A stretch of DNA of 64,000 nt from an uncultured Alphaproteobacteria bacterium (lineage in GTDB: Bacteria > Pseudomonadota > Alphaproteobacteria > HIMB59 > GCA-002718135): positions 83,726 through 147,725 of the forward strand of contig CACNND010000001.1 of assembly GCA_902621725.1 (NCBI GenBank), in the 5' to 3' direction. The notes under the pieces are model-generated. The model saw nothing but the letters and a program-made list of their open reading frames with translations. It did no database searches and had not been told where the DNA came from. Position numbers and translations under genes: made by a program. Of this stretch, positions 9,911 through 58,871 are shown piece by piece. Within the stretch, counting starts at the first letter, position 1; each line of letters starts with the position of its first letter.

Positions 9911-9916
9911 AAGTAA

Positions 9917-34228: not shown

Positions 34229-34302
34229 TATGTTAACAAAGTAGAAATTTCATTAAAAATTATAATAATTTACATTTAAAAATATGCTATTTATTAACAA
34301 AC

Positions 34303-41356: not shown

Positions 41357-42727
41357 ATGGATAGAGGATTATTAGACAATTTGAAAGAGCTTTTACAAGA
41401 AAGAATATCATTTTCAGAAAGTGTTAGAAATAATCACGCTAAAGGTGAAGATGCCTATGATCCTATCTTACCCAGAGCAGTTTTATTTCCAAAAAATAAT
41501 GAAGAACTTTCAAAAATATTAAAAATTTGTAACGAATTCAAGGTACCAGTAACTGCCTATGGAACAGGAACATCACTAGAAGGTCATGTAGTAGGTAATG
41601 AAGAAGGTTTTACAATATCAATGGAAAATTTTAATAAAATAATTTCAATCAATGAGCAAGATTTTGATTGTCGGGTTCAGGCCAATGTATCTCGTGAACA
41701 ACTTAATGAAACTCTTAAAGATAAAGGAGTATTTTTTCCAATTGATCCTGGTGCTAATGCATCTTTGGGTGGTATGACTGCTTGCTCTGCATCAGGAACA
41801 ATGGCTGTAAGATACGGAACAATGAGAACAACCGTTCTAGGTCTAACTGTAGTTTTAGCAAATGGAGATATAATAAAAACGGGTACAAGAGCAAAAAAAA
41901 CTTCTGCAGGATATAATTTGACCAATCTTTTTGTTGGTTCTGAAGGTACACTAGGAATAATCACTGAGATTCATCTTAGATTATCACCTGTTCCTGAAAG
42001 TATAATGAGTGCCGTATGTCAATTTCCAGATCTTGATTCAGCTGTTTTAACTGCTCAAGAAATTATTCAATACGGTGTACCAATTGCTAGAGTAGAGTTG
42101 TTAAATAAAGATCAGATGGATATTAGTATAAAGTATTCTAAACTAGAGAATTTAGAAAGTTTACCAACACTTTTTTATGAATTTCATGGAAGTGAAATTT
42201 CAAATAAAGAATCTATTGATGTAGTTGAGGAGATATCTAAAAATAATAATGGTAGTGAATTTAAGTGGGCAGCAAACACGGAAGAAAGAAATAAGATTTG
42301 GAAAGCGAGACATAATGTTTATTATTCAGTTAAAGCGCAAGGGGATAATATAAGAGTTTACGCTACTGATGTTTGCGTGCCTATCTCAAATATTGTTGAG
42401 TGTATTAAATTTGCAGAAAACGAACTTCAAGGTACTGGGCTGAAAGCTCCTATGGTTGGTCATGTAGGTGATGGAAATTTTCATGTAACTATTGTCTATG
42501 ATCCTAACAAAGATAATGAATATCAATACATAAGAAAATTTAGTGATAAATTAATTGATAAAGCACTAAAAATGGATGGAACAATAACAGGAGAACACGG
42601 GATAGGTCTTCAAAAAAAGGAATATTTATTAAGACAACACCCAGATAATATTCCTTTAATGAAATTAATTAAGAAAAGTTTTGATCCAAATAATATTTTA
42701 AACCCAGGTAAAATATTTGATATTTAA
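41357..42727 (+). CDS. FAD-linked oxidase (D-lactate dehydrogenase/GlcD-like)
   Basis: FAD_binding_4 pattern (AYGTGTSLEGH) and a C-terminal GEHGIG motif. Confidence 0.85.
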   Translation: MDRGLLDNLKELLQERISFSESVRNNHAKGEDAYDPILPRAVLFPKNNEELSKILKICNEFKVPVTAYGTGTSLEGHVVGNEEGFTISMENFNKIISINEQDFDCRVQANVSREQLNETLKDKGVFFPIDPGANASLGGMTACSASGTMAVRYGTMRTTVLGLTVVLANGDIIKTGTRAKKTSAGYNLTNLFVGSEGTLGIITEIHLRLSPVPESIMSAVCQFPDLDSAVLTAQEIIQYGVPIARVELLNKDQMDISIKYSKLENLESLPTLFYEFHGSEISNKESIDVVEEISKNNNGSEFKWAANTEERNKIWKARHNVYYSVKAQGDNIRVYATDVCVPISNIVECIKFAENELQGTGLKAPMVGHVGDGNFHVTIVYDPNKDNEYQYIRKFSDKLIDKALKMDGTITGEHGIGLQKKEYLLRQHPDNIPLMKLIKKSFDPNNILNPGKIFDI

Positions 42728-42772
42728 AATATAAAAATTAAATTAATTCTAAATTTTTTATTATAATAATAA

Positions 42773-43816
42773 CTACTTTGGATTATTGATATCTTCGTTA
42801 TACGCAAATACTGCTGGGCTTCCGCCTGTATATATAAATATTACATTATCACCTTTTTTAATAATACCTTTTTCCACATAATCTATAAGAGCAGCAAAAC
42901 CTTTGGAAGTATAAACTGGGTCTAAAATTATAGATTCTTTATTTGCTAAAAGCTTCATAGCCTCTATTCCTGCTTTTGTAGTAGCACCATATTTTTCACC
43001 TACATAACTATTATCATGATTGATCATTTCGTGATTAAATTTTACATTTACATCAAGTAACTTAGCTCCTTCATTGCAAATCCTGGCAATATCTTTTTTA
43101 ATATCCATTTCCCAATAAACAGGAGAAATACCTTGAATACGAGTTGGCCAATTTAATATTTTTGCCCCTAACACACATCCTGCTTGTGTCATATTAGCAG
43201 CTGTAACAAATAAATGATCTGCCATAAAATTTTGTTCTTTCATTTGCAAATCAATTTCAGCCATAGCATTTGCATAACTAATTCCAGCAAGAGTTGTATC
43301 CTCTTTTCCAAATCCACCATATATTATTAAAGGTTTGCGACCCTCCTTTATTAACTCTTTATATTTTCTATCTAGATGTTTTGGTATTTCTTCTAAATTT
43401 TCTCCATCAACTACCTCAACGTTTGCTCCCAAGATGTTATATAATAAAAAATTACCTTGCATTAACTTACCTTTTATTCCATGCATCAATACTAAATAAC
43501 TATCTAGATTTAATTTATTAGCAGCAGCTACTGCTTGACGACAAAAGTTTGATTGAGAGGCGGCTCCAGTTAAAATACAATCAAACTCTCCAGATAAAGT
43601 TTTAGCCATTATAAATTCTAGATGCCTTGTTTTATTCCCTCCGAAAGCTAGAGCAGTACAATCATCTCTTTTTATATAAAGATTTATATTTAACTCTTTA
43701 GAAATATTAGGGGCATATTCAAGAACAGTTGGTAGTTGTGCTAAATGAATTTTTGGAATTTTATTTATTCTTGAAACTAATTCTTCAGCAGATAACGGTT
43801 TAAAATTACTATTCAT
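42773..43816 (-). CDS. PLP-dependent ACC deaminase/D-cysteine desulfhydrase family enzyme
   Basis: GGNKTRHLEF (PLP-Lys region of the family), tryptophan-synthase-beta fold. Confidence 0.8.
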   Translation of the reverse strand: MNSNFKPLSAEELVSRINKIPKIHLAQLPTVLEYAPNISKELNINLYIKRDDCTALAFGGNKTRHLEFIMAKTLSGEFDCILTGAASQSNFCRQAVAAANKLNLDSYLVLMHGIKGKLMQGNFLLYNILGANVEVVDGENLEEIPKHLDRKYKELIKEGRKPLIIYGGFGKEDTTLAGISYANAMAEIDLQMKEQNFMADHLFVTAANMTQAGCVLGAKILNWPTRIQGISPVYWEMDIKKDIARICNEGAKLLDVNVKFNHEMINHDNSYVGEKYGATTKAGIEAMKLLANKESIILDPVYTSKGFAALIDYVEKGIIKKGDNVIFIYTGGSPAVFAYNEDINNPK

Positions 43817-43846
43817 TTTACAAATGACATTAAAAATTTTTAAAAA

Positions 43847-45580
43847 TTAATGACTATGTCTTTTTACCTCTGAGCCTCTTTTACCAATCAGAAAATCAAG
43901 ATCTGCACCTTTATCAGCTTGCATAACGTGATCTATATACATTTTTTGATAACCACCAGAAATCTCAGGTAAAATTGGATTATAATTATCTAAACGATTT
44001 TTAATTGTTTCTTCGTCAACTTTTAAGTCCATAGCACCTTTATTGACATCTATTTCTATTAGATCACCATTTTGAACCGCTGCTAAAGGGCCTTTTACTG
44101 CTGCTTCAGGAGCAGTATGAAGGATTACTGTTCCATATGCTGTTCCACTCATTCTAGCATCAGATATCCTAATCATATCCCTTACACCTTTCTTTAAAAG
44201 TTTTTGTGGAAGACGCATATTACCAACTTCTGCCATACCTGGATAACCTTTTGGTCCACAATTTTTCAAAACTAATATAGATTTTTCGTCTACCTCTAAA
44301 TTTGGATCATCAATTTTTTCATGAAATTCTTCTACACTTTCAAAGACAACCGCTTTTCCAATATGTTTCATTAATTCTGGTGATGCAGCAGATGGTTTAA
44401 TTATTGCGCCATTAGGTGCAATGTTTCCTTTAAGAATTTTAATGCCTCCATTTTTTGTTAATGGATTATCAAATTCTTTTATAACTTCATTATTCCAACA
44501 TTTAGCGTTTTTGTTATTTTCACCAATAGTTTTTCCATTTACTGTCAATGCATTCTCATCTAATAATTTTTTTTCAAGTAATCTTTTTATTACAACAGGA
44601 ACTCCACCTGCATAATAAAAATCTTCCATTAAATATTTTCCAGAAGGCTGAAGATTTACAAGTGTCGGAATTCCCTCTCCACACTTATTCCAATCTTCTA
44701 AATCCAAATCTATTTCCATTCTTCCTGAAATAGCTGCTAAATGAATAACAGCATTTGTTGAACCGCCTATAGCGCCATTAACTTTTATTGCATTTTCAAA
44801 TGATTTTTTTGTTACAATTTTTGACATATTTATATTTTCTTTAACCATCTCAACAATTCTTTTTCCTGACATATGAGCTAATGTGTATCTTCTTGAATCA
44901 ACTGCTGGAATTGCTGCGTTTCCAGGAAGAGACATTCCTAATGCTTCCACCATTGAACCCATTGTTGATGCTGTACCCATAGTCATACAATTACCTTTTG
45001 ATCTGCTCATTGAAATTTCTGCATTTATAAAATCTTCTTCTGTAATTACACCTGCGTTTAAATCAGCATCAAGTTTCCAAACTCCTGTTCCAGAACCTAT
45101 AGTTTCTCCCTGATGATGACCATTCAGCATTGGACCGCCTGAAACTCCTATTGTTGGAAGGTCAACACTTGCTGCACCCATCATTAATGAAGGTGTTGTT
45201 TTATCACAACCCATTAATAGTACTACACCGTCTATTGGATTACCCCTTATTGCTTCTTCAACATCCATACTTGCCAAGTTTCTAAACAACATCGCTGTAG
45301 GTCTTAAGTTAGATTCACTTGCTGAAAATACAGGAAATTCAAGTGGGAAACCACCAGCTTCATAAACACCTTTTTTAACAGACTCTGCTATCTCTCTAAA
45401 ATGACCATTACATGGTGTCAGTTCTGACCAAGTATTACAAATTCCAATTACAGGACGTCCATCAAATAGGTGATTGGGATGCCCTTGATTTCTCATCCAG
45501 CCTCTATGAATAAATGTATCTCTTCTATGTGTTTTAGAATTATACCAATTGGAAGATCTAAATTTATTTTTTTTATTCAT
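43847..45580 (-). CDS. IlvD/Edd family dehydratase (sugar-acid dehydratase type)
   Basis: CDKTTPS cluster-ligand motif, 577 aa. The context with a lactonase suggests an aldonate dehydratase rather than biosynthetic IlvD. Confidence 0.85.
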   Translation of the reverse strand: MNKKNKFRSSNWYNSKTHRRDTFIHRGWMRNQGHPNHLFDGRPVIGICNTWSELTPCNGHFREIAESVKKGVYEAGGFPLEFPVFSASESNLRPTAMLFRNLASMDVEEAIRGNPIDGVVLLMGCDKTTPSLMMGAASVDLPTIGVSGGPMLNGHHQGETIGSGTGVWKLDADLNAGVITEEDFINAEISMSRSKGNCMTMGTASTMGSMVEALGMSLPGNAAIPAVDSRRYTLAHMSGKRIVEMVKENINMSKIVTKKSFENAIKVNGAIGGSTNAVIHLAAISGRMEIDLDLEDWNKCGEGIPTLVNLQPSGKYLMEDFYYAGGVPVVIKRLLEKKLLDENALTVNGKTIGENNKNAKCWNNEVIKEFDNPLTKNGGIKILKGNIAPNGAIIKPSAASPELMKHIGKAVVFESVEEFHEKIDDPNLEVDEKSILVLKNCGPKGYPGMAEVGNMRLPQKLLKKGVRDMIRISDARMSGTAYGTVILHTAPEAAVKGPLAAVQNGDLIEIDVNKGAMDLKVDEETIKNRLDNYNPILPEISGGYQKMYIDHVMQADKGADLDFLIGKRGSEVKRHSH

Positions 45581-45612
45581 GAATGAAAGTTTTAGCTAAT
45601 TAAAGTAAAAAA

Positions 45613-46500
45613 TCAAATTTTAAATTTATAATCTTCAACTCCTGGTACATTTACATTTAATGCGAATAAACTGCCATCATATTGATTTTTGCCAGAATTA
45701 TTTGCAGTAGTAATGAATAATGTCTTAAGATCAGTACCACCAAAAACACAATTAGTGACATTTTCTACAGGTAGCTCATAAATTTGATCGACTCTTCCTT
45801 TAGGGTCAATTCTCACTAAACATGATCCACCCCAACGACAATTCCAAATAAAACCATCACTATCAATAGTTGAACCATCTGGAGCTCCTCTATCAAAATC
45901 AAATAAAATTTTTTTATCTGATAAACTGCCTTTGTCTAGATTAAATTTATATTCAAGTAATGATCCTTCAGTTGAGTCAGCAAAATAAAATTTTGTATTA
46001 TCTGGACTCCAAACAAATGTATTAGGTATACCAAGATTTGTTTCAACTATGTTTAATTTATTTTCCGATAAACAATATAAAGTTCCAGATTTAGTATTTA
46101 AAGTCTTTGCACTTCCATCCTGATTAATATTATTTTGCATTGTACCAAACCAGAGCCTTCCTTTTGCATCGGATGCACCGTCGTTTGATCTATTAGTTAA
46201 AATATTTTCTTCTACCTCTTTAATTATTTCATATTTTTTGGTTTGAAAATTAAATTTGTTTACTCCGTTGTTTGAAACTAGAGCAATTTCACTGTTTGAA
46301 ATTGTTGATGATGCTGTTACAAATTCAGGTAATTCAAAAGTTTCTAATTTTTCACTTTGAAAATTTATTCTGAATAAAACTGTTTTTGGTTTTATATCAA
46401 GCCAAAATAAACTTTGATTAATTGAAGACCAAGTTATACCTTCACCTAAACTGTTTTTTACATCTTTATATAATTCAACCTTACTCACCGAAAGGATCAA
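45613..46500 (-). CDS. SMP-30/gluconolactonase/LRE-like lactonase
   Basis: GEGITW, LFWLDI, and six-bladed-propeller-type repeats. Confidence 0.85.
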   Translation of the reverse strand: MILSVSKVELYKDVKNSLGEGITWSSINQSLFWLDIKPKTVLFRINFQSEKLETFELPEFVTASSTISNSEIALVSNNGVNKFNFQTKKYEIIKEVEENILTNRSNDGASDAKGRLWFGTMQNNINQDGSAKTLNTKSGTLYCLSENKLNIVETNLGIPNTFVWSPDNTKFYFADSTEGSLLEYKFNLDKGSLSDKKILFDFDRGAPDGSTIDSDGFIWNCRWGGSCLVRIDPKGRVDQIYELPVENVTNCVFGGTDLKTLFITTANNSGKNQYDGSLFALNVNVPGVEDYKFKI

Positions 46501-46532
46501 TATAATAAAATTTAAAATTTATGAAGATAAGA

Positions 46533-47537
46533 TTAAAGATAATGCGCTTTGTCTTTGATACGAGCCATTACTTCTTTTGTTGCTTCTTCAGATCCATCAT
46601 GAAAAGTACCCATTAGTTTATCTAAAAAACTAGTGTTTCCTCCTGAGTAATTACATTCAAAGTATTTGTGATGAATATAGTGCATATAATCACCTGTGGG
46701 TATTGATACACCATTTTTGAAAGTCATCTTTTCATATCCTGTATGTCCAGGTGTAGGGGCTAGTCCAGCATGAAAAACATGATACATCGCAACAAGAGGG
46801 TGAGAAGGAATAATCCAATGTACTAAAATACCTGAAAAATATAATAGATGCTCTATTGGGTGCATAGACATACCAGACCAAGCACCTGTATTTGTATTAC
46901 GGTGATGAACTTTATGAGCAATTTTATAAAGTGGTGCCCAGTGCAATAGTCTATGAGTTAAATAAAAATGTGCGTCTCTTATAAATGGAACAAGAAAGAA
47001 CATAAAACAACAATATATTGGATAAGCCTCCCAGCTTACATAAGGGATTATTTGATTTGCGAATGCCCAAAATGTAATTACTTCATAAGCTGTCCATAAT
47101 GGGATAGCACTACAAAAAGTATAGAATAGGTTATCTTTAGTCTGATCATTGAATAAAAATGTTGAGTTATTTTTTTCTAAAGGTCGTGGATTATATTTAA
47201 ATGAAGTTCCTTGTGTCTTCAGTCTTAAATGAAAGAAGCCTGTCCAAAGCAAAATAATAAGTGCATTTCTAAAGAATATGTAGGATATCCATCCTATTTC
47301 AAAAGTCTTCATTGTCTCTAAAGAAGGAGTCAAAAAAAGATATGTAGCAACTGTTATCGCTGCAAATACGAAAGTCCATGGGAAAAAAATTCCTGGGAAT
47401 TTAAAAAAATACTTTAAAAATTTTATTGGGTTGAAAAATATATCTTTAGGTGGGTTAATACTTATTGTACCAAATGGTTTCCAATGACCCCGTTTATCTC
47501 TTGTACCAAAATCACTGTCATTTAATTGATTTCCCAT
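46533..47537 (-). CDS. Fatty acid hydroxylase/sterol desaturase family membrane di-iron enzyme
   Basis: His boxes HRLLH, HKVHH and HYIHHKY, with several TM helices. Confidence 0.8.
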   Translation of the reverse strand: MGNQLNDSDFGTRDKRGHWKPFGTISINPPKDIFFNPIKFLKYFFKFPGIFFPWTFVFAAITVATYLFLTPSLETMKTFEIGWISYIFFRNALIILLWTGFFHLRLKTQGTSFKYNPRPLEKNNSTFLFNDQTKDNLFYTFCSAIPLWTAYEVITFWAFANQIIPYVSWEAYPIYCCFMFFLVPFIRDAHFYLTHRLLHWAPLYKIAHKVHHRNTNTGAWSGMSMHPIEHLLYFSGILVHWIIPSHPLVAMYHVFHAGLAPTPGHTGYEKMTFKNGVSIPTGDYMHYIHHKYFECNYSGGNTSFLDKLMGTFHDGSEEATKEVMARIKDKAHYL

Positions 47538-47575
47538 AATGTATTTATAATATATTTTGAGTAAAAAAAAAGAGA

Positions 47576-48592
47576 CTAAATTGTCGTATCTGGAACCTTC
47601 ACATCAATAAAATAATTTTTATCTTTAGATTGCTTAAATATTGCTGGGATTATTGATCTATAAGCAGAAATTATTCCGTTATGAGGTTCTGGCATTTGAT
47701 TTTTAACTATTTTGTGAAATTTTTTTAAATTATGACATGGGATTTTTGGGAAAATGTGATGCTCAATATGATACTCCATATTTGAATACAAAAAACTAAA
47801 AAAAGGATTCATAATAACGGTTCTTGTACTTTTTCTATGGTCTTTAATATTATCAGCTAGTCCAGCATGTTGAGTCATGCCACAAATCATTAATATAGTA
47901 TTTCCATAAAATGGAGGTAAAATTATCATTATGATTGGTAGCCATGATTGTAATAAAACTGAGGATAGAATTACAAGTAACCAAAAACCTAGATATAATC
48001 TGGAACTATTAATAATTTTTTTTATCTCCTTTTCAGGTACAGTAACTTTTACTACAGGAGTGATTATTCCAAATGAATGTTTAATAATTTCAAAATGTGT
48101 AAAATGTCTTATTTTTTGAATATTAATTATTGGACCAAATGGTAAAAAATTTAAAAGAAATCTAATAGGTTCTGTTGGTTTCGGACTATTGTTTTCGTAA
48201 TCATACACTTCGTCATGTGTAAATATTGTGTAAGTGTGATGATGAAAATGACTCCATTTCCATCTAACTGCCTCAAAACCTCCAAGCAAAGAAGTTATAT
48301 GATAAAAAAATTTATTTAACGCTCTTTTTTTAAAATATGTTTCGTGATTTGTTTCATGTTGAATACTAATGATTTTACAATAAAAAATATTTCCATAAAG
48401 TAGAAAAGCAGGAATTGACCATAAAGTGCCCCAACTTACAATGCATAGATATCCACTTAATACTAGGGCAATGACAAATAATGATATATCTATTATGCCT
48501 TTTAAATCAGATCTCTTAGATAGTTCTTTTAAAATTTTCTTATCTATATTTGGCTTGTACCAATTTTTTAAATCTACTTCGCCTGCGAACAT
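47576..48592 (-). CDS. Fatty acid desaturase family (FADS-like) membrane di-iron enzyme, copy B
   Basis: His boxes HETNH, HFHHH and HIEHHIFP. Paralog of 51053..52039. Confidence 0.8.
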   Translation of the reverse strand: MFAGEVDLKNWYKPNIDKKILKELSKRSDLKGIIDISLFVIALVLSGYLCIVSWGTLWSIPAFLLYGNIFYCKIISIQHETNHETYFKKRALNKFFYHITSLLGGFEAVRWKWSHFHHHTYTIFTHDEVYDYENNSPKPTEPIRFLLNFLPFGPIINIQKIRHFTHFEIIKHSFGIITPVVKVTVPEKEIKKIINSSRLYLGFWLLVILSSVLLQSWLPIIMIILPPFYGNTILMICGMTQHAGLADNIKDHRKSTRTVIMNPFFSFLYSNMEYHIEHHIFPKIPCHNLKKFHKIVKNQMPEPHNGIISAYRSIIPAIFKQSKDKNYFIDVKVPDTTI

Positions 48593-48595
48593 TAA

Positions 48596-49423
48596 TCAAA
48601 ATTTTTCTGAAAGTTTTAGGAATTTTTCAAATTCAGCTTCGTCGATGTTTACTGTGATTTTAGGGTCATTAAATTTTTTGTTTACTGTGTCATCGTGAAA
48701 TTCTTTAAAAGCACTAATTCTTTCAGCTTGTAGTTTTGCAAATTCTTTTTTAAAATCTCTATAAATACGTGCATGTCTTGGAATTTTTCCTTGAGTATAC
48801 CCAAGAACATCATTAGCAAATAAATATTGCCCATCACATCCAGAACCACTTCCCATTGAGAGAGTCATGATATCAACTTTTTTTGTAATAATTTCTGCAA
48901 CTTTTGGTGGAACTACTTCGAGTTCAACTCCGATAGCCCCCGCTTCTTGTAACTCAAGAGTATGTTCTAAAATTCTGATGGCTTTATTAGCAGTTTTACC
49001 TTGCGCAATAAATCCTCCAATCCAAGTAGCATTTCCTGGAACTAATCCAACATGACTGTTAATTGGAATGTACTCATCTCTTAATGCTCTAATCCATTTG
49101 TAGCTCCAATTACCACCATAGATTACATCTGCACCAATATCTAAATACTTATGTGATAGTTTCATTGCTTCATACTCAGAAGCTACTCTTACTGCACCTC
49201 CAGATTGCATAAAGCAAGTTGGCGCAGCCTCACGAATTCTCTTAAGTTCATCAAAAGAATTATAAATACCAAATTGTGGAGCATCATGAGAAGTACAAAT
49301 CATATCAATGCCTGCCTCTTCAGCTGCTGCAGCTTCATCAGCATTATGCACAAACATAACACTTAGTTGTCTTTTACCTTTGCATTGCAAATAATCATAA
49401 ACTGTAAGTTTTTTTCTGCTCAT
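48596..49423 (-). CDS. PanB-like (3-methyl-2-oxobutanoate hydroxymethyltransferase family) enzyme, divergent
   Basis: Colinear with PanB (HVGLVPGNATWIGGFIAQGKT vs [21 protein letters not shown]; LEVVP vs LECVP; MGSGSGCDGQYL vs IGAGNVTDGQIL). The GDSLGM segment is not recognisable. Confidence 0.7.
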   Translation of the reverse strand: MSRKKLTVYDYLQCKGKRQLSVMFVHNADEAAAAEEAGIDMICTSHDAPQFGIYNSFDELKRIREAAPTCFMQSGGAVRVASEYEAMKLSHKYLDIGADVIYGGNWSYKWIRALRDEYIPINSHVGLVPGNATWIGGFIAQGKTANKAIRILEHTLELQEAGAIGVELEVVPPKVAEIITKKVDIMTLSMGSGSGCDGQYLFANDVLGYTQGKIPRHARIYRDFKKEFAKLQAERISAFKEFHDDTVNKKFNDPKITVNIDEAEFEKFLKLSEKF

Positions 49424-49441
49424 AAAATCTCCAAAAAATAT

Positions 49442-49759
49442 TTAATCTATTTTAATGAAAATTTTGTCATTATCAACTTTAACTGGATATGTTTTTAAAT
49501 CCTCACACGCTGGTGGGCTTAAAGCTTCGCCAGATTTAATATTAAAAATTCCTTGATGCATTGGACATTCAATTTCATCATCCATAACCAGGCCATCTTC
49601 AAGATGTACTGCCTCGTGTGTACAAATTCCATCAGTAGCATAAAAACCATCTGCTAATCTATACACGCAAAATGTTTTATCTTGATGATCAAATCTTATG
49701 AGATCCTCTTCTTCAATACTATCTGTAGACCCAACTTCAATCCAATTTTCTTCAGACAT
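49442..49759 (-). CDS. Rieske [2Fe-2S] ferredoxin
   Basis: CTHE...H and CPMHQG (CxH...CxxH) in a 105-aa soluble protein. Confidence 0.85.
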   Translation of the reverse strand: MSEENWIEVGSTDSIEEEDLIRFDHQDKTFCVYRLADGFYATDGICTHEAVHLEDGLVMDDEIECPMHQGIFNIKSGEALSPPACEDLKTYPVKVDNDKIFIKID

Positions 49760-49811
49760 AGATTGTATATAATATCTATTTTATGAAAATAAATACAAAA
49801 TAATTAATTTA

Positions 49812-51047
49812 TTATTTTTGTATAAGTTTATTTAATTTTTGATTTTGATCTGAAAGAATTTGTTTATCTACAATGGTATTTTTCTCAGTTAATTTAGAAG
49901 TTATTCTAATGTCACGACCAATTTTTCCTGCAATTCCTAGACCACATGCACCTCTTATTATTTTATCTTTTAGAAAAAAATAAATTACACCATTATTAAT
50001 CTCATTTCCTCTTTCAATGATTTCATCATAATCATCACAAATACCAGTCAGTTGGAGATTCAAATTAAATTGATCAGACCACATCCAAGGAATTGAGGTA
50101 TATTCTGTTTTTACTCCAGCAATATTTTTTCCAGCACATATTCCATGATTTTGTGCATGTTGATAAGACTCAAGTCTCATATATCTTTCATATAATGGAT
50201 GATAAAAATTAGATACGTCACCAGCTGCATAAACATCTTTAATAGAAGTTTCACAAAATTGATTAGTAACTATACCATTATCAAGCTTTAAATTTGTATT
50301 TTCAAATAACTTTACAGATGGGTTTGAGCCTATACCTGCAATTACAAAATCTGTTTCTATTAAAGAATTATCATTTAATAAAATTTCATAGATGCCATTT
50401 TTTTTAGTTATTTTATCTATTTGTTTATTTAATATTATTTCATTTCCTTGTTCTATATGAGTGTTTTGAACCAAATCAGCAATTTGTTTGGGTATAATTC
50501 TTCCCATAAGTTGATTGCCAATTTCGATAACAGTAACTTTCTTTTGAAGCTGAGATAAAGATGAAGCAATTTCTAAGCCAATGAAACCACCGCCAATAAT
50601 AGTTATTTTATTTTTATTTTTATTTGCAACTATTTCTTTAATTATTTTGGCTTCTTCTAAATTTCTTAGATAATAAATATCATTGTTTAAATTATTATCT
50701 AAACTAAGTTTTTTATTTTCAGAACCTGTTGAAATGAGCAAAATATCATAAGAATAAACATTATCGTTTTTTGCAACAAGTTTTTTATTTTCAAAATCAA
50801 CTTTATTAATTGATATATTTTCAAAATCTATGTTTTCATTTTTTAGTACATGACTAGAATGAAAATAAAGATCTTCTTCATTTTTTTTATCTAACAAAAA
50901 ATCTTTAGATAAAGGAGGTCTTTCATAAGGTAATAAATTTTCTTCACCTAAAATTTTAATATTTGATTCAGAATCATTTTTTCTAATCTCTCTAGCAGCA
51001 TAAATTCCGGCTTGACCACCGCCTAAAATTATAATGTTATTTTTCAC
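49812..51047 (-). CDS. FAD-dependent ferredoxin-NAD(P)+ reductase (pyridine nucleotide-disulfide oxidoreductase family)
   Basis: Two Rossmann GxGxxG motifs (ILGGGQAG; IIGGGFIG). The length is typical of ferredoxin/rubredoxin reductases. Confidence 0.85.
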   Translation of the reverse strand: MKNNIIILGGGQAGIYAAREIRKNDSESNIKILGEENLLPYERPPLSKDFLLDKKNEEDLYFHSSHVLKNENIDFENISINKVDFENKKLVAKNDNVYSYDILLISTGSENKKLSLDNNLNNDIYYLRNLEEAKIIKEIVANKNKNKITIIGGGFIGLEIASSLSQLQKKVTVIEIGNQLMGRIIPKQIADLVQNTHIEQGNEIILNKQIDKITKKNGIYEILLNDNSLIETDFVIAGIGSNPSVKLFENTNLKLDNGIVTNQFCETSIKDVYAAGDVSNFYHPLYERYMRLESYQHAQNHGICAGKNIAGVKTEYTSIPWMWSDQFNLNLQLTGICDDYDEIIERGNEINNGVIYFFLKDKIIRGACGLGIAGKIGRDIRITSKLTEKNTIVDKQILSDQNQKLNKLIQK

Positions 51048-51052
51048 TTAGT

Positions 51053-52039
51053 TTAAGCGTTACCGGGAATAGATAATGGGATTTGATAATCTGGATTTTT
51101 TGCTTGTTTTATGAGTGCTGGAATAATTTCTTTATAAGCCCCAAGAAGACCTTTTCTGGCAGATGGTAATTGATCTTTAATTATAGCATGAAGTTTAGGT
51201 AAATTATGTGAGGGAACTTGAGGGAACATATGGTGCTCAACATGATATTCCATATGCCAATATAAAAAACTTAAAACTGGATTTAAATATACTGTTCTGG
51301 TTGTATACCTGTGATCTCTTTTATCTTCTCTAAGTCCAGCGTGCTGAGTAAGACCCATTAGCATGACGAGTGTCTTTCCATAAAAATTAGGTAATAAAAC
51401 ATATAGAACTGGAAGCCAGCTTTGAAAGTATACTGAAGAAGCAATACTTATAATCCAAATAGAGAGATGACTCCAAGCGGATAATCTACATTTCCATCTT
51501 TCGTTTTCAGGGATACAAACTTTCATTACATCTGTAGTCACACCAAATGCATGTTTTATAGTTTCCCATTGAAGAGAATTTTTAAAAAAAATAAAACCAG
51601 AGAATGGAATGTAGTGAGAGAAAAACACAATTAAATCAGTTGGTTTTTTTACATGAATTTCAAAATCCACAGGATCATTGAATTGGGTATAAGTATGATG
51701 ATGATAATGAGAATATCTCCATCTTATAGGCTCGAAATTATCCATGAAACTTGCAATGTAATAAAAGAAATCATTCCAGAATTTTGATTTAAAAGCTGTT
51801 CTGTGACCAGTTTCATGCCAAATAGCATCACTACATCCCCATATATTTCCATATATTAGAAAAAATAATAAAGACCACCAAGTGCCCCATGTGACATATG
51901 CAAGATACCCAAAAAGAAATAGAGATGAAAAATAAATTATCATATGCTTAAAACCCTGCCAATCAGATTTCTTGCATAACTTCTTAAATTCTTTTTTATC
52001 TATATTTGCTCGATACCATTTACCTAAATCTACTTCCAT
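51053..52039 (-). CDS. Fatty acid desaturase family (FADS-like) membrane di-iron enzyme, copy A
   Basis: His boxes HETGH, HYHHH and HVEHHMFP. First gene of the co-directional operon. Confidence 0.8.
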   Translation of the reverse strand: MEVDLGKWYRANIDKKEFKKLCKKSDWQGFKHMIIYFSSLFLFGYLAYVTWGTWWSLLFFLIYGNIWGCSDAIWHETGHRTAFKSKFWNDFFYYIASFMDNFEPIRWRYSHYHHHTYTQFNDPVDFEIHVKKPTDLIVFFSHYIPFSGFIFFKNSLQWETIKHAFGVTTDVMKVCIPENERWKCRLSAWSHLSIWIISIASSVYFQSWLPVLYVLLPNFYGKTLVMLMGLTQHAGLREDKRDHRYTTRTVYLNPVLSFLYWHMEYHVEHHMFPQVPSHNLPKLHAIIKDQLPSARKGLLGAYKEIIPALIKQAKNPDYQIPLSIPGNA

Positions 52040-52229
52040 AATTAAAAAATAGCACTTTTTAATAACCTTATAAATATAAAAATTACTATAAATTAGGAAT
52101 TAAGTGCGACTATTTTATCTAGCTAACGTAACTCGAATTTAATTTGTAATAAACCCTTTAATACTTTAATTTAATTGTAATATTGATTTATTTACTTATA
52201 AATTGAGTCATAAATTATTTGGAGGAATT

Positions 52230-53210
52230 ATGAAAAAAATCTTTGCAATCATTGCTCTATTTTTTGCTTTTGCATCTACTTCAGCAGTAGCAAAAAATGA
52301 TTATAGCTGTGATAAGAAATTTATATTTTTCCCAGGCGGACCTGAAGGTGGTCCATTTGGAACTATTGTTTATAATGGTGCAGTAGCTGCTGCTGAACAT
52401 ACTGGTTGTGACGTAGACTATTACTGGTCACAATGGAACTCAGAAATCATGATTAAACAATTCAAAGAGGCTGTTGCTTTACAGCCTGATGGAATTGCAA
52501 TCTATGGTTTTCCAGGTGACGCTGCAATGAGACCTATCATTCAAGAAGCTAGAGAAATGGGAATAGTTATTACTACTATGAACACGCCTCTTCCTGACCT
52601 TGAGTCAGAGTATAAAACTGAAGGATTTGGTTATGCAGGCGCAGATTTATTTGATGCTGGATTTAATCTAGGTAAAAAAGCTGTTGAAGTTTGTGGTCTA
52701 CAAGCTGGAGACAAAGCTTTTATCTGGGGTCTTGCAAGTATGCCAAATAGAGGAGAAAGAACTAAAGGTGCAATAGCTGGTGTTGAAGCAGCAGGTGTTG
52801 AAGTAGTTTATCAAGAAATTCCTGATAACGTAAACTCTGATGCATCACAGGGAACTCCTATGTATGTTGCAACATACAGTGCAAATCCTGATATTAAATT
52901 AGCTATTACTGATCATGGTGGATTAACTGCAAGTTTACCAACATATATGAAGGCTGCAGGTCATGGTACTGAAGAAGTATGTGGCGCTGGATTTGATTTA
53001 TCAGCTCCAATTGTTGATGGAATTAATTCAGGTTACATTGATGTAGTAATTGATCAACAACCATTTATCCAAGGATATATGCCAATCGTTCAATTATTCC
53101 TAAGTACAAAGTATGGAATGGCTGGATTAGCTATGGATACTGGTGCTGCATTTGTTACAGCTGATAACGTAGATGCTGTTGCTCCATTAGCAGCAGTACA
53201 AATCAGATAA
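52230..53210 (+). CDS. Sugar-type ABC transporter periplasmic substrate-binding protein (PBP type I)
   Basis: Signal peptide MKKIFAIIALFFAFASTSAVA preceded by a GGAGGA SD. RbsB/FrcB-like fold pattern. The track start at 52203 (TTG) is rejected. Confidence 0.85.
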   Translation: MKKIFAIIALFFAFASTSAVAKNDYSCDKKFIFFPGGPEGGPFGTIVYNGAVAAAEHTGCDVDYYWSQWNSEIMIKQFKEAVALQPDGIAIYGFPGDAAMRPIIQEAREMGIVITTMNTPLPDLESEYKTEGFGYAGADLFDAGFNLGKKAVEVCGLQAGDKAFIWGLASMPNRGERTKGAIAGVEAAGVEVVYQEIPDNVNSDASQGTPMYVATYSANPDIKLAITDHGGLTASLPTYMKAAGHGTEEVCGAGFDLSAPIVDGINSGYIDVVIDQQPFIQGYMPIVQLFLSTKYGMAGLAMDTGAAFVTADNVDAVAPLAAVQIR

Positions 53211-53222
53211 ATTAAATTTTAT

Positions 53223-53255
53223 AACCTGCCTTAATTTAAGGCAGGTTAAATTTTT
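53223..53255 (+). terminator. Intra-operon hairpin (attenuator or partial terminator) after the binding-protein gene
   Basis: AACCTGCC (53223-53230) pairs with GGCAGGTT (53240-53247) around a 9-nt loop. It is followed by AAATTTTT immediately before the ATPase ATG. Confidence 0.5.
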
Positions 53256-54023
53256 ATGGCAGAAGAACTCTTAAAATTAGAAAATATTTATAAAAACTTT
53301 GGAAATGTCAAAGTTTTAAAAGATGTAAATATCAAAATAAATAAAGGTGAAGTAGTAGCTTTAATTGGTGATAATGGTGCTGGCAAATCAACACTTATAA
53401 AAGTTATAACTGGAGTTCACAGCCCAAACTCAGGAAAAGTTTTTTTTAAAGAAAAAGAAGTTCAAATTAAATCAGTCGCCCAATCAAGAAAAATGGGGAT
53501 TGAAGCTGTATATCAAGAGAGAGCACTTTGTGATCAACAAGAATTGTTTAGAAATATTTTTGCAGGAAGAGAAATTACAAACTCATTTGGTTTTTTAGAT
53601 ATCAAAAAACAAAGAAAAGAAGCAGAAAAAATTTTACGAGATTATATAGGGTTTACTTCTAAGGCTATAACTGTGGACTCACCAGTAATGGGTCTATCAG
53701 GCGGAGAAAAACAAGGCGTTGCTTTTGGTAGATCCTTATACTTTAATTCTGATTTGATTGTATTAGACGAACCTACTATGGGTTTATCAATTCAAGAAAC
53801 AGAAAAAGTACTTAACTTTGTAAAGGGTTTAAAAAATGAAAATAAATCAGCTATTTTTATCGATCACAATATAATACACGTTTACGGTGCTGCAGATAGG
53901 TTTATCATTTTAGATAGAGGAGAAGTTGTTGGAGAGTTTAACAAAGAAGATATTTCAAGGGAAGAGCTTGTTAAAAAAATGATCCAACTTCATGAGTCAG
54001 GAAAAATTAAGGTAGAAAATTAA
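53256..54023 (+). CDS. ABC transporter ATP-binding protein (single NBD)
   Basis: Walker A GDNGAGKST, signature LSGGEKQ, Walker B LIVLDEPT. Confidence 0.9.
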   Translation: MAEELLKLENIYKNFGNVKVLKDVNIKINKGEVVALIGDNGAGKSTLIKVITGVHSPNSGKVFFKEKEVQIKSVAQSRKMGIEAVYQERALCDQQELFRNIFAGREITNSFGFLDIKKQRKEAEKILRDYIGFTSKAITVDSPVMGLSGGEKQGVAFGRSLYFNSDLIVLDEPTMGLSIQETEKVLNFVKGLKNENKSAIFIDHNIIHVYGAADRFIILDRGEVVGEFNKEDISREELVKKMIQLHESGKIKVEN

Positions 54024-55001
54024 ATGAGTAGTTTATTAAATAGTTATTTTGTAAAAACACACAAACTTGAAATAAGTATTACAATAATTGCCATAGTGCT
54101 TTTCTTAATTTACTTCTTGGGTGCACCACATGTATTTACAAGATTTCCAATTTACAGAGCTTTCATGCAATCAATGCCTTTTTTTGGCATTATTGCTATA
54201 TCAGCAACATTTGTTGTTACACTTGGTGAAATAGATCTGTCATTCCCATCTATAGTTGGAATTACATCTCTCATATTTGGAATCATAATGACATCAACAG
54301 ATGGTAATTTTTTTATAGCATTTATCTTGGCGACTTCACTTGGAATGTTTGCTGGATTAGTAAATGGATTACTTGTTACTAAAATTGGTATACCTTCAAT
54401 AGTTGCAACTATAGGTACTTTATTTTTTTGGCGTGGATTAGTTAATGTTATTTCCCAAGGTAGTGGTATTGCAATCGTCGATGTGGCAGATGGAACCTGG
54501 CATCATATGATATTTGTAGAAAAATTATTTGGGAAAATTCCAATGCAATTTATTTGGTTCATTGTATTAACAGGTTTGATGCAGTGGGTTTATCGTTACC
54601 ATAAATTTGGAAATCACATCCACTTTGTAGGTGACAATAAAGCAAGTGCTCAAATGATGGGAATTAATGTTGATAATGTAAAAATTATTGCTTTTGTTCA
54701 ATTAGGTTTTTTCTCCGCTTTAGCGGGAATTTTTACAATGTATGAAATGTTATACTTCTGGCCTACACAAGGTGAGGGCTTAATGTTAACGACATTAGCA
54801 GCTGTCTTTGTTGGTGGGACCTCAGTATTTGGTGGTAAGGGTACTATTTTTGGAACCTTTATTGGAGTATTAATTATAGGTTCATTGGAATCAGGTATAG
54901 TTGCTTTAGGATTATCTGGTTTTTATGTAAAATTTATCAATGGGCTCATGATTACAGTTGCCGTGACAGTTTACGCTCTTATACAAAGAAGAAAAAATTA
55001 A
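54024..55001 (+). CDS. ABC transporter permease (ribose/fructose-type, BPD_transp_2)
   Basis: 325 aa, about 9-10 TM helices. Follows the ATPase gene with no gap. Confidence 0.85.
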   Translation: MSSLLNSYFVKTHKLEISITIIAIVLFLIYFLGAPHVFTRFPIYRAFMQSMPFFGIIAISATFVVTLGEIDLSFPSIVGITSLIFGIIMTSTDGNFFIAFILATSLGMFAGLVNGLLVTKIGIPSIVATIGTLFFWRGLVNVISQGSGIAIVDVADGTWHHMIFVEKLFGKIPMQFIWFIVLTGLMQWVYRYHKFGNHIHFVGDNKASAQMMGINVDNVKIIAFVQLGFFSALAGIFTMYEMLYFWPTQGEGLMLTTLAAVFVGGTSVFGGKGTIFGTFIGVLIIGSLESGIVALGLSGFYVKFINGLMITVAVTVYALIQRRKN

Positions 55002-55735
55002 TAAGTAGCTCGACCTCCACTTAAATCAAAAGTTGAGCCTGTGGTATAAGAATTTTCTTCAGAAGACATCCATGCAACTAAAGAGGCTAATTCTTCAACT
55101 AAAACAAATCTATTTCTAGGAATTTTTGATAACATATAATCAATATGTTCTTGCGTAATTTGATCAAAAATCCGTGTCTTAGCAGGTGCAGGGGTAACAC
55201 AATTCACTGCTATATTATTCTCAGCTAACTCTTTTCCTAAAGATTTAGTAAGTGCAATAACTCCTGCTTTTGCTGCACTATAAGGCATTGCATTAGGATT
55301 ACCTTCCTTACCAGCTATCGAGGAAATATTTACGATACGTCCATAATTATGTTTGATAAAATGAGGTACTATAGTTTTACAGCAATAAAATACTCCGCTT
55401 AGATCTATATCGATAACTTTTTGCCATTCCTCAAGTGGATAATCCCAAGTCTTAAAGTTTGGTCCAGCTATTCCTGCATTATTTACTAAAATATCAATTT
55501 TACTTTCATATGTAAGACTTTCAGCAAATGCATTCTCTACATTTTTATAATTTGACACATCAACTTCGATTTTTTGGGTATTTTTTAAATCAACTTTATT
55601 TAAATATTCTTGATCATTGTCCCATATTAATACTCTTGCACCTGATTCTAAAAATCTTTTTGTAATTGCTAAGCCAAAACCTTGTGCTCCACCCGTTACA
55701 ATCGCTACTCTATTTTCTAAATTAATTTTATTCAT
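54998..55735 (-). CDS. Short-chain dehydrogenase/reductase
   Basis: TGGAQGFG, NNAG, YSAAKAG catalytic motif. Confidence 0.85.
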   Translation of the reverse strand: MNKINLENRVAIVTGGAQGFGLAITKRFLESGARVLIWDNDQEYLNKVDLKNTQKIEVDVSNYKNVENAFAESLTYESKIDILVNNAGIAGPNFKTWDYPLEEWQKVIDIDLSGVFYCCKTIVPHFIKHNYGRIVNISSIAGKEGNPNAMPYSAAKAGVIALTKSLGKELAENNIAVNCVTPAPAKTRIFDQITQEHIDYMLSKIPRNRFVLVEELASLVAWMSSEENSYTTGSTFDLSGGRATY

Positions 55736-56208
55736 TAGATTTTTTCTAAAATATATTCAGCTGAACTAACACGGAATTCACCATCTTTTTCAATAAACTT
55801 ATTTATAATCACATTATTCTCAATGATCATGGCAAATCTTCGACACCTAAAGCCCATGTAATTTTTCGTCTTATCAGACATCAGGTCAAAATACCCTGTG
55901 ATCTCAGCATTTCCGTCTGCAATCCCGTTGATCTTTTCTCCCTCTGTATAACTTACTAACCAAGATTTCATCACATGTTCATCGTTTACAGAGAGACAAT
56001 AAATTCCATCAATTTTTTTATTAATAAATGAATTATATAATTTTATATAACCTGGAAGATGTTTCTCAGAACAAGTTGGTGTAAATGCCCCTGGAACACC
56101 AAATAGAATAATTTTTTTATTTTTTAATTCATTTTTTAATGAAGTTACAGATGATACACCTTTTTTAATAATAGGTACTTTAAAATCATCAATAATCATA
56201 TTTTTCAT
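55735..56208 (-). CDS. Peroxiredoxin, Prx5 (type 5/PrxD) subfamily
   Basis: PGAFTPTCS peroxidatic-Cys motif. 157 aa, no signal peptide. Confidence 0.85.
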   Translation of the reverse strand: MKNMIIDDFKVPIIKKGVSSVTSLKNELKNKKIILFGVPGAFTPTCSEKHLPGYIKLYNSFINKKIDGIYCLSVNDEHVMKSWLVSYTEGEKINGIADGNAEITGYFDLMSDKTKNYMGFRCRRFAMIIENNVIINKFIEKDGEFRVSSAEYILEKI

Positions 56209-58262: not shown

Positions 58263-58319
58263 ATAAAATAAATCAATAAAATATTGAAAAATATAAATTA
58301 ACACGAATATATATACTAT

Positions 58320-58871
58320 ATGAATTTAACTGGTCAGTTCTTAATTTCAATGCCTTCATTAGAAGATTATAGATTTGAAAAAACAGTAATATATATGTGC
58401 GCTCACTCAAAGGATGGCGCGATGGGTATAATAATTAACAAGAAAATTGACTACGATCTTTACCCTGATTTGTTAAATCAGCTAGGAATAGATAAGCCAT
58501 TAGAGGGTAAAAAACTTTACATTCGTTATGGCGGACCTGTTGAAAGTGGTAGAGGATTTGTTTTACATTCTGATGAAGTGATTCAAAAAGAAACACTAAC
58601 AATAGATAAAGGTGTTGCGTTAACTAGTACTTCCGAATTTTTTGATGATCTATCCAAAGGTAATGGTCCAAAGAATAGCATCCTAGCTCTTGGATATGCA
58701 GGATGGGGTCCAGGACAAATTGAAAAGGAATTAGCGTCAAATAGTTGGATGACGCTTAAAACAGATAGTGATTTTATTTTTGGCGAAAAAGTAAATAATA
58801 AGTGGAACGATGCATTTAATTTATTAGGAATAGATGCGAGTAAACTTTCATTATTCTCTGGAAATTGTTAA
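58320..58871 (+). CDS. YqgE/AlgH family protein (UPF0301)
   Basis: LTGQFLISMP...F.KTVIYMC.H..DGAMGIIINK pattern. Confidence 0.85.
   Translation: MNLTGQFLISMPSLEDYRFEKTVIYMCAHSKDGAMGIIINKKIDYDLYPDLLNQLGIDKPLEGKKLYIRYGGPVESGRGFVLHSDEVIQKETLTIDKGVALTSTSEFFDDLSKGNGPKNSILALGYAGWGPGQIEKELASNSWMTLKTDSDFIFGEKVNNKWNDAFNLLGIDASKLSLFSGNC

Follow-up and report, generated by a model that had tools for sequence, protein, structure and literature searches.

The closest genetically defined relative of the genes considered here is MocDEF, which, in the accounts that PMC10107442 and PMC5132102 give when citing Bahar 1998, is the oxygenase system for catabolism of rhizopine (3-O-methyl-scyllo-inosamine). In S. 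meliloti L5-30 and R. leguminosarum an FA_desaturase-family oxygenase, the Rieske protein MocE and an FAD reductase are encoded in one operon that is linked to a Peripla_BP_4 substrate-binding protein (SBP) and an ABC importer, and the substrate is a methylated and aminated carbohydrate-like molecule. A combination of genes of the same families is present in a 64,000-nucleotide stretch of alphaproteobacterial DNA (the window; GenBank assembly GCA_902621725.1, contig CACNND010000001.1, positions 83,726 to 147,725), which has ~30% G+C and lies on contig C1 of a 1.38-Mb SAR11-type (Pelagibacterales) genome that is 82% complete. Nine genes on its minus strand, running from 52039 down to 42773, together with a divergent importer, would serve the import of methylated aldoses, their oxidative demethylation, transfer of the released one-carbon unit to folate by way of a PanB-like protein, and degradation of what remains from lactone to aldonate to 2-keto-3-deoxy acid. 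The probability of this reading is put at about 0.55.

To judge by its genes the locus would work like MocDEF without being a member of the rhizopine locus. It has three oxygenases, one of them of the FA_hydroxylase family, as well as an embedded PanB-like gene; there is no MocR/GntR, MocA (GFO_IDH_MocA) or MocC (AP_endonuc_2) gene between 33 and 59 kb; and its downstream route is by lactone and aldonate instead of the inositol pathway. Its SBP gives a weak match to the NCBIfam rhizopine-SBP model (82 bits; cut-off 420). Among 251 Rhizobiaceae genomes nine have an SBP above the NF052284 cut-off, and four loci inspected are without MocDEF within 10 kb, while in the R. pisi genome the best rhizopine-SBP match falls below the cut-off and the region around it is also without MocDEF. 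MocDEF-like genes lie beside xylA2 in P. syringae, where their function has been called unclear (PMC5132102).

A second described system invites comparison, the P450 6-O-methyl-D-galactose demethylase of marine Bacteroidota (PMC6292453, PMC9400963). As with what is proposed here from the genes, it is a three-component oxidative O-demethylation whose one-carbon product needs dedicated handling. The Bacteroidota enzyme is a haem P450 in contrast to the membrane di-iron enzymes of the present locus, its formaldehyde is dealt with by separate detoxification pathways, and its genes belong to polysaccharide-utilisation loci of particle-associated bacteria, whereas the organism here is a free-living oligotroph.

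The oxygenase module and its distribution

The minus-strand run begins with oxygenase 1 (51053 to 52039), a membrane di-iron, MocD-like protein of the Pfam family FA_desaturase with three histidine boxes. It is followed by an FAD ferredoxin-NAD(P)H reductase of HcaD/MocF type (49812 to 51047; Pyr_redox_2 and Reductase_C domains, and an HcaD-like match of 297 bits in NCBIfam), a MocE-family Rieske [2Fe-2S] ferredoxin (49442 to 49759), the PanB-like TIM-barrel protein (48596 to 49423), oxygenase 2 (47576 to 48592; membrane di-iron, MocD-like, FA_desaturase) and oxygenase 3 (46533 to 47537; membrane di-iron, FA_hydroxylase / sterol-desaturase family). A sugar lactonase, an aldonate dehydratase and a pyridoxal phosphate (PLP) enzyme, taken up below, complete it. 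The original prediction had counted ten genes, though its own sum was six plus three; the scan of the window found nine open reading frames (ORFs) of at least 80 aa, and a small-ORF check gave no credible tenth gene between 42773 and 52039, where none of at least 25 aa lies outside the larger ORFs. Its family calls for oxygenases, SMP-30 lactonase, IlvD/Edd dehydratase, PLP enzyme and opposite ABC importer were all borne out by domain scans, and its gaps of 52 nt or less agree with those measured, which from oxygenase 1 onward are 5, 52, 18, 3, 38, 32, 32 and 30 nt (a range of 3-52 nt).

The ferredoxin scores 138.5 bits against TIGR02377 (MocE family; cut-off 136.15) and its CxH...CxxH ligands are intact. 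Histidine boxes are kept in all three membrane oxygenases, those of oxygenase 1 being at residues 75, 111 and 262. Oxygenases 1 and 2 are 47% identical, and pairwise comparison detected no sequence similarity of oxygenase 3 to either of them. The block is thus predicted to be a MocDEF-like chain, with the Rieske protein and FAD reductase feeding three membrane di-iron oxygenases. The oxygenases had been set aside in the original prediction as extra to a sugar-acid route; they belong instead to a MocDEF-like module of which the PanB-like gene is a fourth conserved member.

That membership is evident in other bacteria. On pSymB of S. meliloti 1021 (607,130-610,801) a LacI-controlled operon consists of a desaturase, a MocE-family ferredoxin, an FAD reductase and a ‘PanB’, with nothing else; its oxygenase is 44% identical to oxygenase 1, whose top 90%-identity cluster holds 2184 member sequences. 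An alignment of four PanB-like sequences was used to fetch 65 non-SAR11 loci, from Mesorhizobium, Rhizobium, Shinella, Ensifer, Rhodobacterales and a few Acidimicrobiia and Verrucomicrobiota. Of these, 49 carry a MocD-like gene no more than 5 kb from the PanB-like one; a Rieske gene lies as near in 43 and a reductase gene in 22. The commonest order is a lacI gene and then oxygenase, Rieske, (reductase) and PanB-like, often with CUT2 ABC, GFO_IDH_MocA and AP_endonuc_2 genes as neighbours. The Mesorhizobium cluster adds GFO_IDH_MocA and AP_endonuc_2 genes and an SBP/ABC set, and so resembles mocA/mocC/mocB. Among 198 genomes of the class from outside SAR11, sampled with balance between families and with a MocD-like cut-off of E<=1e-60, both genes are present in 7, the oxygenase only in 2, the PanB-like gene only in 4 and neither in 185 (odds ratio about 162, Fisher p about 5e-9). 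Where a PanB-like locus is oxygenase-free, each of five genomes with such a locus encodes one MocD-like protein elsewhere. Oxygenase, Rieske protein, (reductase) and PanB-like protein are a conserved, portable operon unit.

Among SAR11 relatives (single-cell genomes and Tara/JGI contigs) the gene order on the importer side is algH, then dsbD-prx-sdr convergent with perm-atp-sbp, and divergently from these the catabolic side runs oxygenase 1, reductase, Rieske, PanB-like, oxygenase 2, (PanB-like), FA_hydroxylase, lactonase, dehydratase, (PLP), (SDR or DHDPS), with GlcD-like, (Ldh_2), beta-lactamase-fold and EamA genes beyond. The oxygenase complement varies, with one relative (G021) keeping FA_hydroxylase as its only oxygenase plus three PanB-like genes, and another (G069) keeping oxygenase 1 only. 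The importer is adjacent in every case. With a complement so variable, the oxygenases give the impression of exchangeable and probably regiospecific front ends for one ligand family.

Classical Pelagibacter genomes have exactly one oxygenase and PanB-like pair, in that order and with a gap of 15 nt in the complete genome, its neighbours being a gene of the glutamine-synthetase family and one for a Rieske ring-hydroxylating alpha subunit and not sugar genes, which suggests a non-sugar, possibly methylamine-type, substrate. At one such locus (L133; G002:C1:966000-985999, genes 9202-10973) the pair is preceded by a 140-aa ORF without a Pfam family. The family of the present genome has by comparison expanded the module strongly, to 6-7 oxygenases and 3-6 PanB-like genes. 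An independent expansion is seen in an alphaproteobacterium of another family (G548; 4.8 Mb), which has ten MocD-like and five PanB-like genes.

In the genome under study there are seven MocD-like paralogs (43-55% identical), three PanB-like paralogs and five paralogous CUT2 ABC sets. The reductase and the MocE-type ferredoxin are each present in single copy, both in this operon. The neighbours of the remaining paralogs (ThuA, GFO_IDH_MocA, sulfatase, GH4, PhyH, aldehyde dehydrogenase and an IolD-like thiamine pyrophosphate enzyme) mark carbohydrate contexts. Two further clusters (C1:176000-211928, loci L007 and L008, and C19, locus L009) contain five more MocD-like oxygenases and four more CUT2 ABC sets, along with ThuA, GFO_IDH_MocA, sulfatase, PhyH, the IolD-like enzyme and an FAA_hydrolase/SDR pair, and in them a second PanB-like gene is wedged between two MocD-like oxygenases. 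For their electrons the oxygenases of these clusters all appear to rely on the window's one reductase/ferredoxin pair. The third PanB-like paralog (C14:2033-5048, L010), 44% identical, has a metallo-beta-lactamase-fold gene on one side and a GH4 gene on the other, with no oxygenase alongside.

The literature search found no paper on SAR11 MocD-like or PanB-like genes or on the S. meliloti pSymB operon, and for the PanB-like-containing oxygenase module and its SAR11 expansion no describing paper was found.

The PanB-like protein and its proposed handling of the methyl carbon

PanB moves a hydroxymethyl group to and from tetrahydrofolate. With this enzyme (EC 2.1.2.11; structures 1M3U, 3VAV, 3EZ4, 1OY0 and 1O66) the protein of the locus shares the TIM-barrel fold, the conserved histidine and the catalytic glutamate; it differs in falling below the model cut-offs, in having lost the Mg2+/keto-acid site and in its catabolic, oxygenase-linked context. 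Its identity to PanB is 20-29%, the Pfam PanB match is limited to residues 82-251, and the scores against the curated models TIGR00222 (102 bits; cut-off 207.55) and PRK00311 (118; cut-off 272) are low. The true panB is located elsewhere in the genome. The predicted structure (pLDDT 86.9) has a TM of about 0.75 to 3VAV/1M3U, and the top 28 Foldseek matches of the model are all PanB, at TM 0.63-0.78.

The Mg2+/keto-acid ligands of PanB are, in E. coli numbering (1M3U), Asp45-Ser46, Asp84, Lys112 and Glu114, and the positions aligned with them are not conserved in the PanB-like clade. In alignment with the genome's own PanB, which retains GDS, LDMP and KLE, the PanB-like protein is without the Asp/Ser of GDS, the second Asp and the K-x-E. 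It keeps the histidine of H-x-G-L-x-P and the catalytic glutamate (E169, invariant), and has new invariant motifs besides. A clade profile, which finds 409 representatives (50%-identity clusters) at E<=1e-30, scores true PanB at only about 1e-27 as against 1e-65 or better for clade members; its top match is a 542-aa protein (P0121) with two tandem PanB-like domains.

A pointer to what the protein may do comes from PurU, a formyl-tetrahydrofolate deformylase (ACT and Formyl_trans_N domains). In R. multihospitium and three species of Mesorhizobium its gene comes straight after the PanB-like one or overlaps it, and the R. multihospitium PurU is 55% identical to the Mesorhizobium copy. From this linkage, seen in 4 of the 65 loci, it is inferred that the PanB-like protein may retain the folate half-reaction of PanB and accept an oxidised methyl carbon. 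It is accordingly proposed as a putative handler of one-carbon units (hydroxymethyl/formaldehyde) that passes them to tetrahydrofolate. A predicted complex of oxygenase 1 and the PanB-like protein scored 0.00, which speaks neither for nor against binding.

The same features permit another course, in which the imported compound is a C-methyl-branched or deoxy sugar on which the oxygenases make a hydroxymethyl branch, with the PanB-like protein removing it by retro-aldol onto tetrahydrofolate before the sugar-acid route begins. The native reaction of PanB is just such a reversible hydroxymethyl transfer between a 2-oxo acid and tetrahydrofolate, the fold and the catalytic Glu and His are retained, the PurU linkage fits equally, and relatives in the FA_desaturase family act on small polar molecules, hydroxylating their C-H bonds, as exemplified by the weak GntB matches. 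That chemistry would, however, need the Mg2+/keto-acid ligands that stabilise the PanB enolate, and these are not conserved, as well as a neighbouring carbonyl, for the creation of which there is no constant partner dehydrogenase. In addition MocDEF, the sole genetically defined relative, removes an O-methyl group in the accounts given of it by the citing literature. Removal of a C-methyl branch is accordingly considered unlikely, and a MocDEF-like module with a PanB-like member points to O- or N-methyl removal in preference to it. The original prediction had envisaged an unusual amino- or methyl-branched sugar or acid; a methyl or amino sugar was close, and it is the branching on carbon that the module does not favour.

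The proposed pathway and its competitors

The sugar-acid part of the locus is the firmest. The lactonase (45613 to 46500, minus strand) is of the SMP-30/gluconolactonase family (Pfam SGL, 232 bits) with the SMP-30 protein 7PLB as its best solved relative. The IlvD/Edd dehydratase (43847 to 45580, minus strand) scores 819 bits to the solved L-arabinonate dehydratase of R. leguminosarum (5J83/5J84). Its scores with a galactonate dehydratase (524) and with the IlvD/Edd-family dehydratase 5OYN (479) are lower. It is of the L-arabinonate-dehydratase clade, reaching in NCBIfam 914 bits with PRK06131 and 835 with the L-arabinonate-dehydratase equivalog, a little short of the cut-off of 882. The original prediction took lactonase and aldonate dehydratase to be the signature of a non-phosphorylative sugar-acid route, and the dehydratase match sustains this, as does the presence in relatives of DHDPS-family and enolase-superfamily genes. 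With the non-phosphorylative L-arabinose pathway of Azospirillum and Rhizobium the locus shares the succession of SMP-30 lactonase and IlvD/Edd dehydratase, to which relatives add the DHDPS-family gene; here, by contrast, oxygenases precede and a PLP enzyme follows, and no DHDPS-type or aldehyde-dehydrogenase step is encoded in the window. The full L-arabinose route comprises L-arabinonolactonase, L-arabinonate dehydratase, L-KDA dehydratase and KGSA dehydrogenase. From the clade of the dehydratase and the substrate range of that enzyme, the imported sugar is probably of L-arabino/D-galacto/D-fuco configuration.

In the proposed course of events an abundantly made SBP and its ABC partners would import the methylated sugar. 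The FAD reductase would draw electrons from NAD(P)H, and the MocE-type Rieske ferredoxin would deliver them to the three membrane di-iron oxygenases, each of which would hydroxylate a methyl group to give a hemiacetal or carbinolamine that frees a one-carbon unit. The PanB-like protein would hand this unit to tetrahydrofolate as 5,10-methylene-tetrahydrofolate with no free formaldehyde, so feeding the folate-linked one-carbon oxidation of SAR11. The demethylated sugar would be oxidised to its lactone, for which the candidate enzyme is a short-chain-type SDR encoded at 54998 to 55735, the SMP-30 lactonase would open the lactone, and the L-arabinonate-type dehydratase would turn the aldonate into a 2-keto-3-deoxy acid, with the PLP enzyme perhaps carrying out the equivalent beta-elimination/deamination on a 2-amino-aldonate. 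The final cleavage would in relatives fall to a DHDPS-family aldolase/dehydratase, whose gene is not encoded here, and GlcD-like and Ldh_2 dehydrogenases would oxidise the 2-hydroxy-acid end products.

Confidence differs along this course. Gene content, intact catalytic motifs, the synteny of importer and operon and the oxygenase/PanB-like partnership are observed; the substrate, the demethylation, tetrahydrofolate as acceptor and the roles of the SDR, PLP enzyme, GlcD-like and Ldh_2 proteins are predicted from them. The sugar-acid core is very likely, and that the oxygenases act on an imported carbohydrate is likely. That their reaction is a demethylation is somewhat favoured, and capture of the carbon by folate has a little short of an even chance. 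Attachment of the methyl groups is most likely through oxygen and possibly through nitrogen, and in many strains the sugar may also be aminated. It is a more tentative step to regard the PanB look-alike as a new enzyme type, a tetrahydrofolate-dependent acceptor of one-carbon units from membrane di-iron O-/N-demethylases, by which SAR11 would harvest the methyl groups of dissolved methyl sugars for energy, bound to folate, and degrade the remaining skeleton by a sugar-acid route.

Several considerations weigh against the demethylation pathway, beginning with the fact that the function of the locus is predicted from its genes. The ‘MocD-like’ label depends on family, partners and the MocE model, and no ligand is inferable from the SBP, which has only distant sugar-SBP matches among solved structures. 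A hemiacetal decomposes spontaneously, and release of the one-carbon unit strictly needs no enzyme. The PurU linkage is confined to the 4 loci mentioned, and ten other genes found downstream of PanB-like genes are heterogeneous and unrelated to folate. At about 16 of the 65 loci the 5 kb around the PanB-like gene is free of oxygenase genes, and the 198-genome sample includes the four genomes with a PanB-like gene and no MocD-like gene at the cut-off used, and two with the reverse. Domain scans found no DHDPS-type aldolase, KDA dehydratase or aldehyde dehydrogenase in the window, and in the genome, at 82% completeness, neither of the first two was seen apart from a single weak DHDPS match, on C62, that is probably dapA. 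Finally, the role proposed for the PLP enzyme as a beta-eliminating deaminase of an amino-aldonate is a guess.

That enzyme (42773 to 43816, minus strand) is of fold type II, in the D-Cys desulfhydrase / CuyA / ACC-deaminase family by Pfam and NCBIfam, and its best curated match is the D-cysteate sulfo-lyase CuyA (274 bits; cut-off 450). No paper linking enzymes of the D-Cys-desulfhydrase family to glucosaminate was found in the literature. Its gene follows ilvD in about half of the relatives and on Tara/JGI/NCBI contigs, and this adjacency in many lineages lends something to the idea that the substrate is an N-methylated amino sugar, which the three oxygenases would N-demethylate, with the one-carbon unit going to tetrahydrofolate as in sarcosine and dimethylglycine oxidation and the PLP enzyme eliminating ammonia from the amino-aldonate. 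A need of the PLP enzyme for a primary amine would explain demethylation beforehand, rhizopine is both methylated and aminated, and the classical Pelagibacter pair, beside its glutamine-synthetase-family and Rieske oxygenase genes instead of sugar genes, fits such chemistry. Yet about half of the closest relatives are without the PLP gene and keep all three oxygenases, and the substrate of an IlvD-type dehydratase has to be a 2,3-diol and not a 2-amino acid. We know of no N-methyl amino sugar that is a major marine solute, and an N-methylated amino sugar as the substrate is regarded as improbable.

The original prediction remarked that an aldolase was not obvious, and this locus does lack an aldolase or KDA-dehydratase step. 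Could the PanB-like protein itself be the missing class-II-type aldolase for the 2-keto-3-deoxy acid, with the oxygenases hydroxylating or desaturating the substrate for some other purpose? No other aldolase is present in the window, PanB chemistry is of aldol type on 2-oxo acids, and relatives have up to three or four PanB-like copies per operon. The PanB-like gene nevertheless travels with the oxygenase (49 of the 65 loci) and has ilvD within 10 kb in only about 6 of the 65, the S. meliloti operon is without a dehydratase, and the metal/keto-acid site has been lost. Relatives, moreover, have DHDPS-family genes for that step besides their PanB-like genes (L023, L032, L033, L040 and L138), and the chance that the PanB-like protein fills it is accordingly held to be slim. 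Relatives also add MR_MLE (enolase-superfamily) and Amidohydro_2 genes. At L138, a SAR11 single amplified genome (GCA_902590695.1), DHDPS, MR_MLE and Amidohydro_2 genes and another CUT2 importer, its ATPase of the fused kind, come past the PLP gene, a layout that looks like a fucose/rhamnose-type sugar-acid cluster.

Much less probable is a sulfosugar, for which SDR, lactonase and IlvD would act as in the sulfo-Entner-Doudoroff pathway and the Ldh_2/GlcD-like and CuyA-like PLP enzymes would take sulfolactate by way of cysteate to pyruvate, sulfite and ammonia. The trio of SDR, SMP-30 lactonase and IlvD-family dehydratase matches the enzyme types of the P. putida SQ1 pathway. The best NCBIfam matches of the PLP enzyme and Ldh_2 protein are to CuyA, as above, and to L-sulfolactate dehydrogenase (181 bits), but these fall far under their cut-offs of 450 and 500. 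Further, the dehydratase comes close to being an ortholog of L-arabinonate dehydratase, some relatives do without Ldh_2, scans of the window revealed no KDSG-type aldolase, sulfolactaldehyde dehydrogenase, aminotransferase or sulfite exporter/oxidase, and the oxygenases and PanB-like gene would be left unexplained. Action of the FA_desaturase and FA_hydroxylase proteins on lipids or hydrocarbons (as AlkB-like hydroxylases or acyl desaturases that cluster here by accident), which the Pfam family names and weak NCBIfam matches to the desaturase DesB and to CrtR might suggest, is hardly credible, as those matches are of 25-45 bits against cut-offs of 380-500, the partners across phyla are Rieske ferredoxin, LacI regulators, CUT2 sugar importers and GFO/IDH/MocA enzymes, gene order and importer adjacency are conserved across SAR11, and no rubredoxin or alcohol/aldehyde dehydrogenase pair is present. 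No paper attributing AlkB to SAR11 was found in the literature.

Should demethylation of imported methyl sugars be what the locus serves, SAR11, the most abundant marine heterotroph, would have dedicated machinery for it that is strongly expanded in this family, occupying by rough estimate about 45 kb, or roughly 3% of the 1.4-Mb genome, in three such clusters. Its carbohydrate use would be tied to its known folate-linked one-carbon oxidation, and there would be a function for a widespread family now mis-annotated as ‘PanB’ and for ‘fatty-acid desaturase’ genes of rhizobia, Rhodobacterales and others. The SBP, the oxygenases and the PanB-like protein are concrete proteins with which the hypothesis could be directly tested. 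Methyl sugars are a large part of the sea's dissolved organic matter of high molecular weight and the enzymes that cleave their one-carbon units are unknown; semi-labile marine dissolved organic matter is rich in methylated and deoxy sugars, and who demethylates them is an open question (PMC4817625).

Importer, control elements and flanking genes

The importer on the plus strand is a CUT2 set, as is apparent from a Peripla_BP_4 SBP with signal peptide (52230 to 53210), an ABC_tran ATPase (53256 to 54023) and a BPD_transp_2 permease of monosaccharide type (54024 to 55001; weak NCBIfam matches to GguB, RbsC and AraH) in one operon. The ATPase is a single domain of 255 aa, not the usual fused double domain of about 500 aa, and there are four paralogous ATPases of 245-248 aa elsewhere in the genome; two fused double ATPases are also present, on C5 and C3. 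In each of the SAR11 relatives inspected, orthologs of all three importer proteins (91-100% identical) are encoded next to the catabolic genes and divergently from them. The tie that the original prediction drew between transporter and operon is thereby supported.

The mechanical ORF of the SBP begins with TTG at 52203; the likely true start is the ATG at 52230, with a signal peptide and with GGAGG ahead of it. With that start the divergent region between the oxygenase 1 and SBP genes (52040 to 52229) measures exactly the 190 nt foreseen. The predicted hairpin after that gene is likewise found, at 53222 to 53248 between the SBP stop and the ATPase start, as a terminator-like structure with a 12-bp stem and a T-run that may act as an intra-operon attenuator or stabiliser. 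It is kept in 18 related loci, where stem pairs ACCTGCC/GGCAGGT, GCCTGCC/GGCAGGC and GCCTGTC/GACAGGC amount to compensatory changes. Otherwise promoter and terminator consensus scans were at chance level, and an Rfam scan of 38-59 kb gave no element.

In the divergent region blocks such as AAGTGCGAC and TTAATACTTTAATTTAATTGTA are kept among close relatives and altered in more distant ones, and are candidate operator or promoter elements of a locus without a regulator gene. Regulator-free loci are unremarkable for SAR11. The original prediction had excluded a transcription factor from 33.4-58.9 kb; domain scans of the window proteins found no DNA-binding protein family in 33.4-58.3 kb, and the claim holds that far, the AlgH-like DUF179 gene at 58320-58871 being the sole gene ever labelled ‘regulator’.

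Contigs from seawater metatranscriptomes (four studies, at least 92% identity) span 27-29 of the 30 bins of 42700-55800 and bridge the junctions of FA_hydroxylase with oxygenase 2, PanB-like with Rieske, SBP with hairpin and ATPase, and ATPase with permease. These are contigs of relatives and may include DNA, and are weak evidence of expression; contig depth is highest on the SBP gene, though such depth cannot rank genes and so is not used as evidence of relative expression.

The candidate sugar 1-dehydrogenase, the SDR mentioned above (54998 to 55735, minus strand), is convergent with the permease gene, and its role is inferred. G021 has a 75% ortholog of it within its catabolic operon, and in Tara/JGI contigs (L134-L137) an adh_short gene follows the PLP gene. 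In the window it is the last gene of a dsbD-prx-sdr run (54998-58304) in which the dsbD-like, Prx5-like and SDR genes overlap stop to start from end to end, an order beside the importer that is kept in most relatives.

Past the other end of the catabolic genes come recurrent or optional neighbours. A GlcD-like FAD 2-hydroxy-acid oxidase/dehydrogenase (41357 to 42727, plus strand) also adjoins the locus in G021, L036 and L134-L137, and an Ldh_2-family 2-hydroxy-acid dehydrogenase (40325 to 41323, minus strand) is present in G021 and L036 and absent from L134-L137. Next are a recurrent beta-lactamase-fold serine hydrolase, weakly AcmB methyl-ester-hydrolase-like (39124 to 40317, minus strand), and an EamA-family transporter (38267 to 39127, minus strand), also seen beside the loci of relatives. 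Further out, at 33452-38217, lies a pentitol/pentulose module of an SDR (glucose-1-dehydrogenase subfamily), a Zn-ADH, a DalD-like D-arabinitol 4-dehydrogenase and a xylulokinase that exceeds the XylB equivalog cut-off of NCBIfam.

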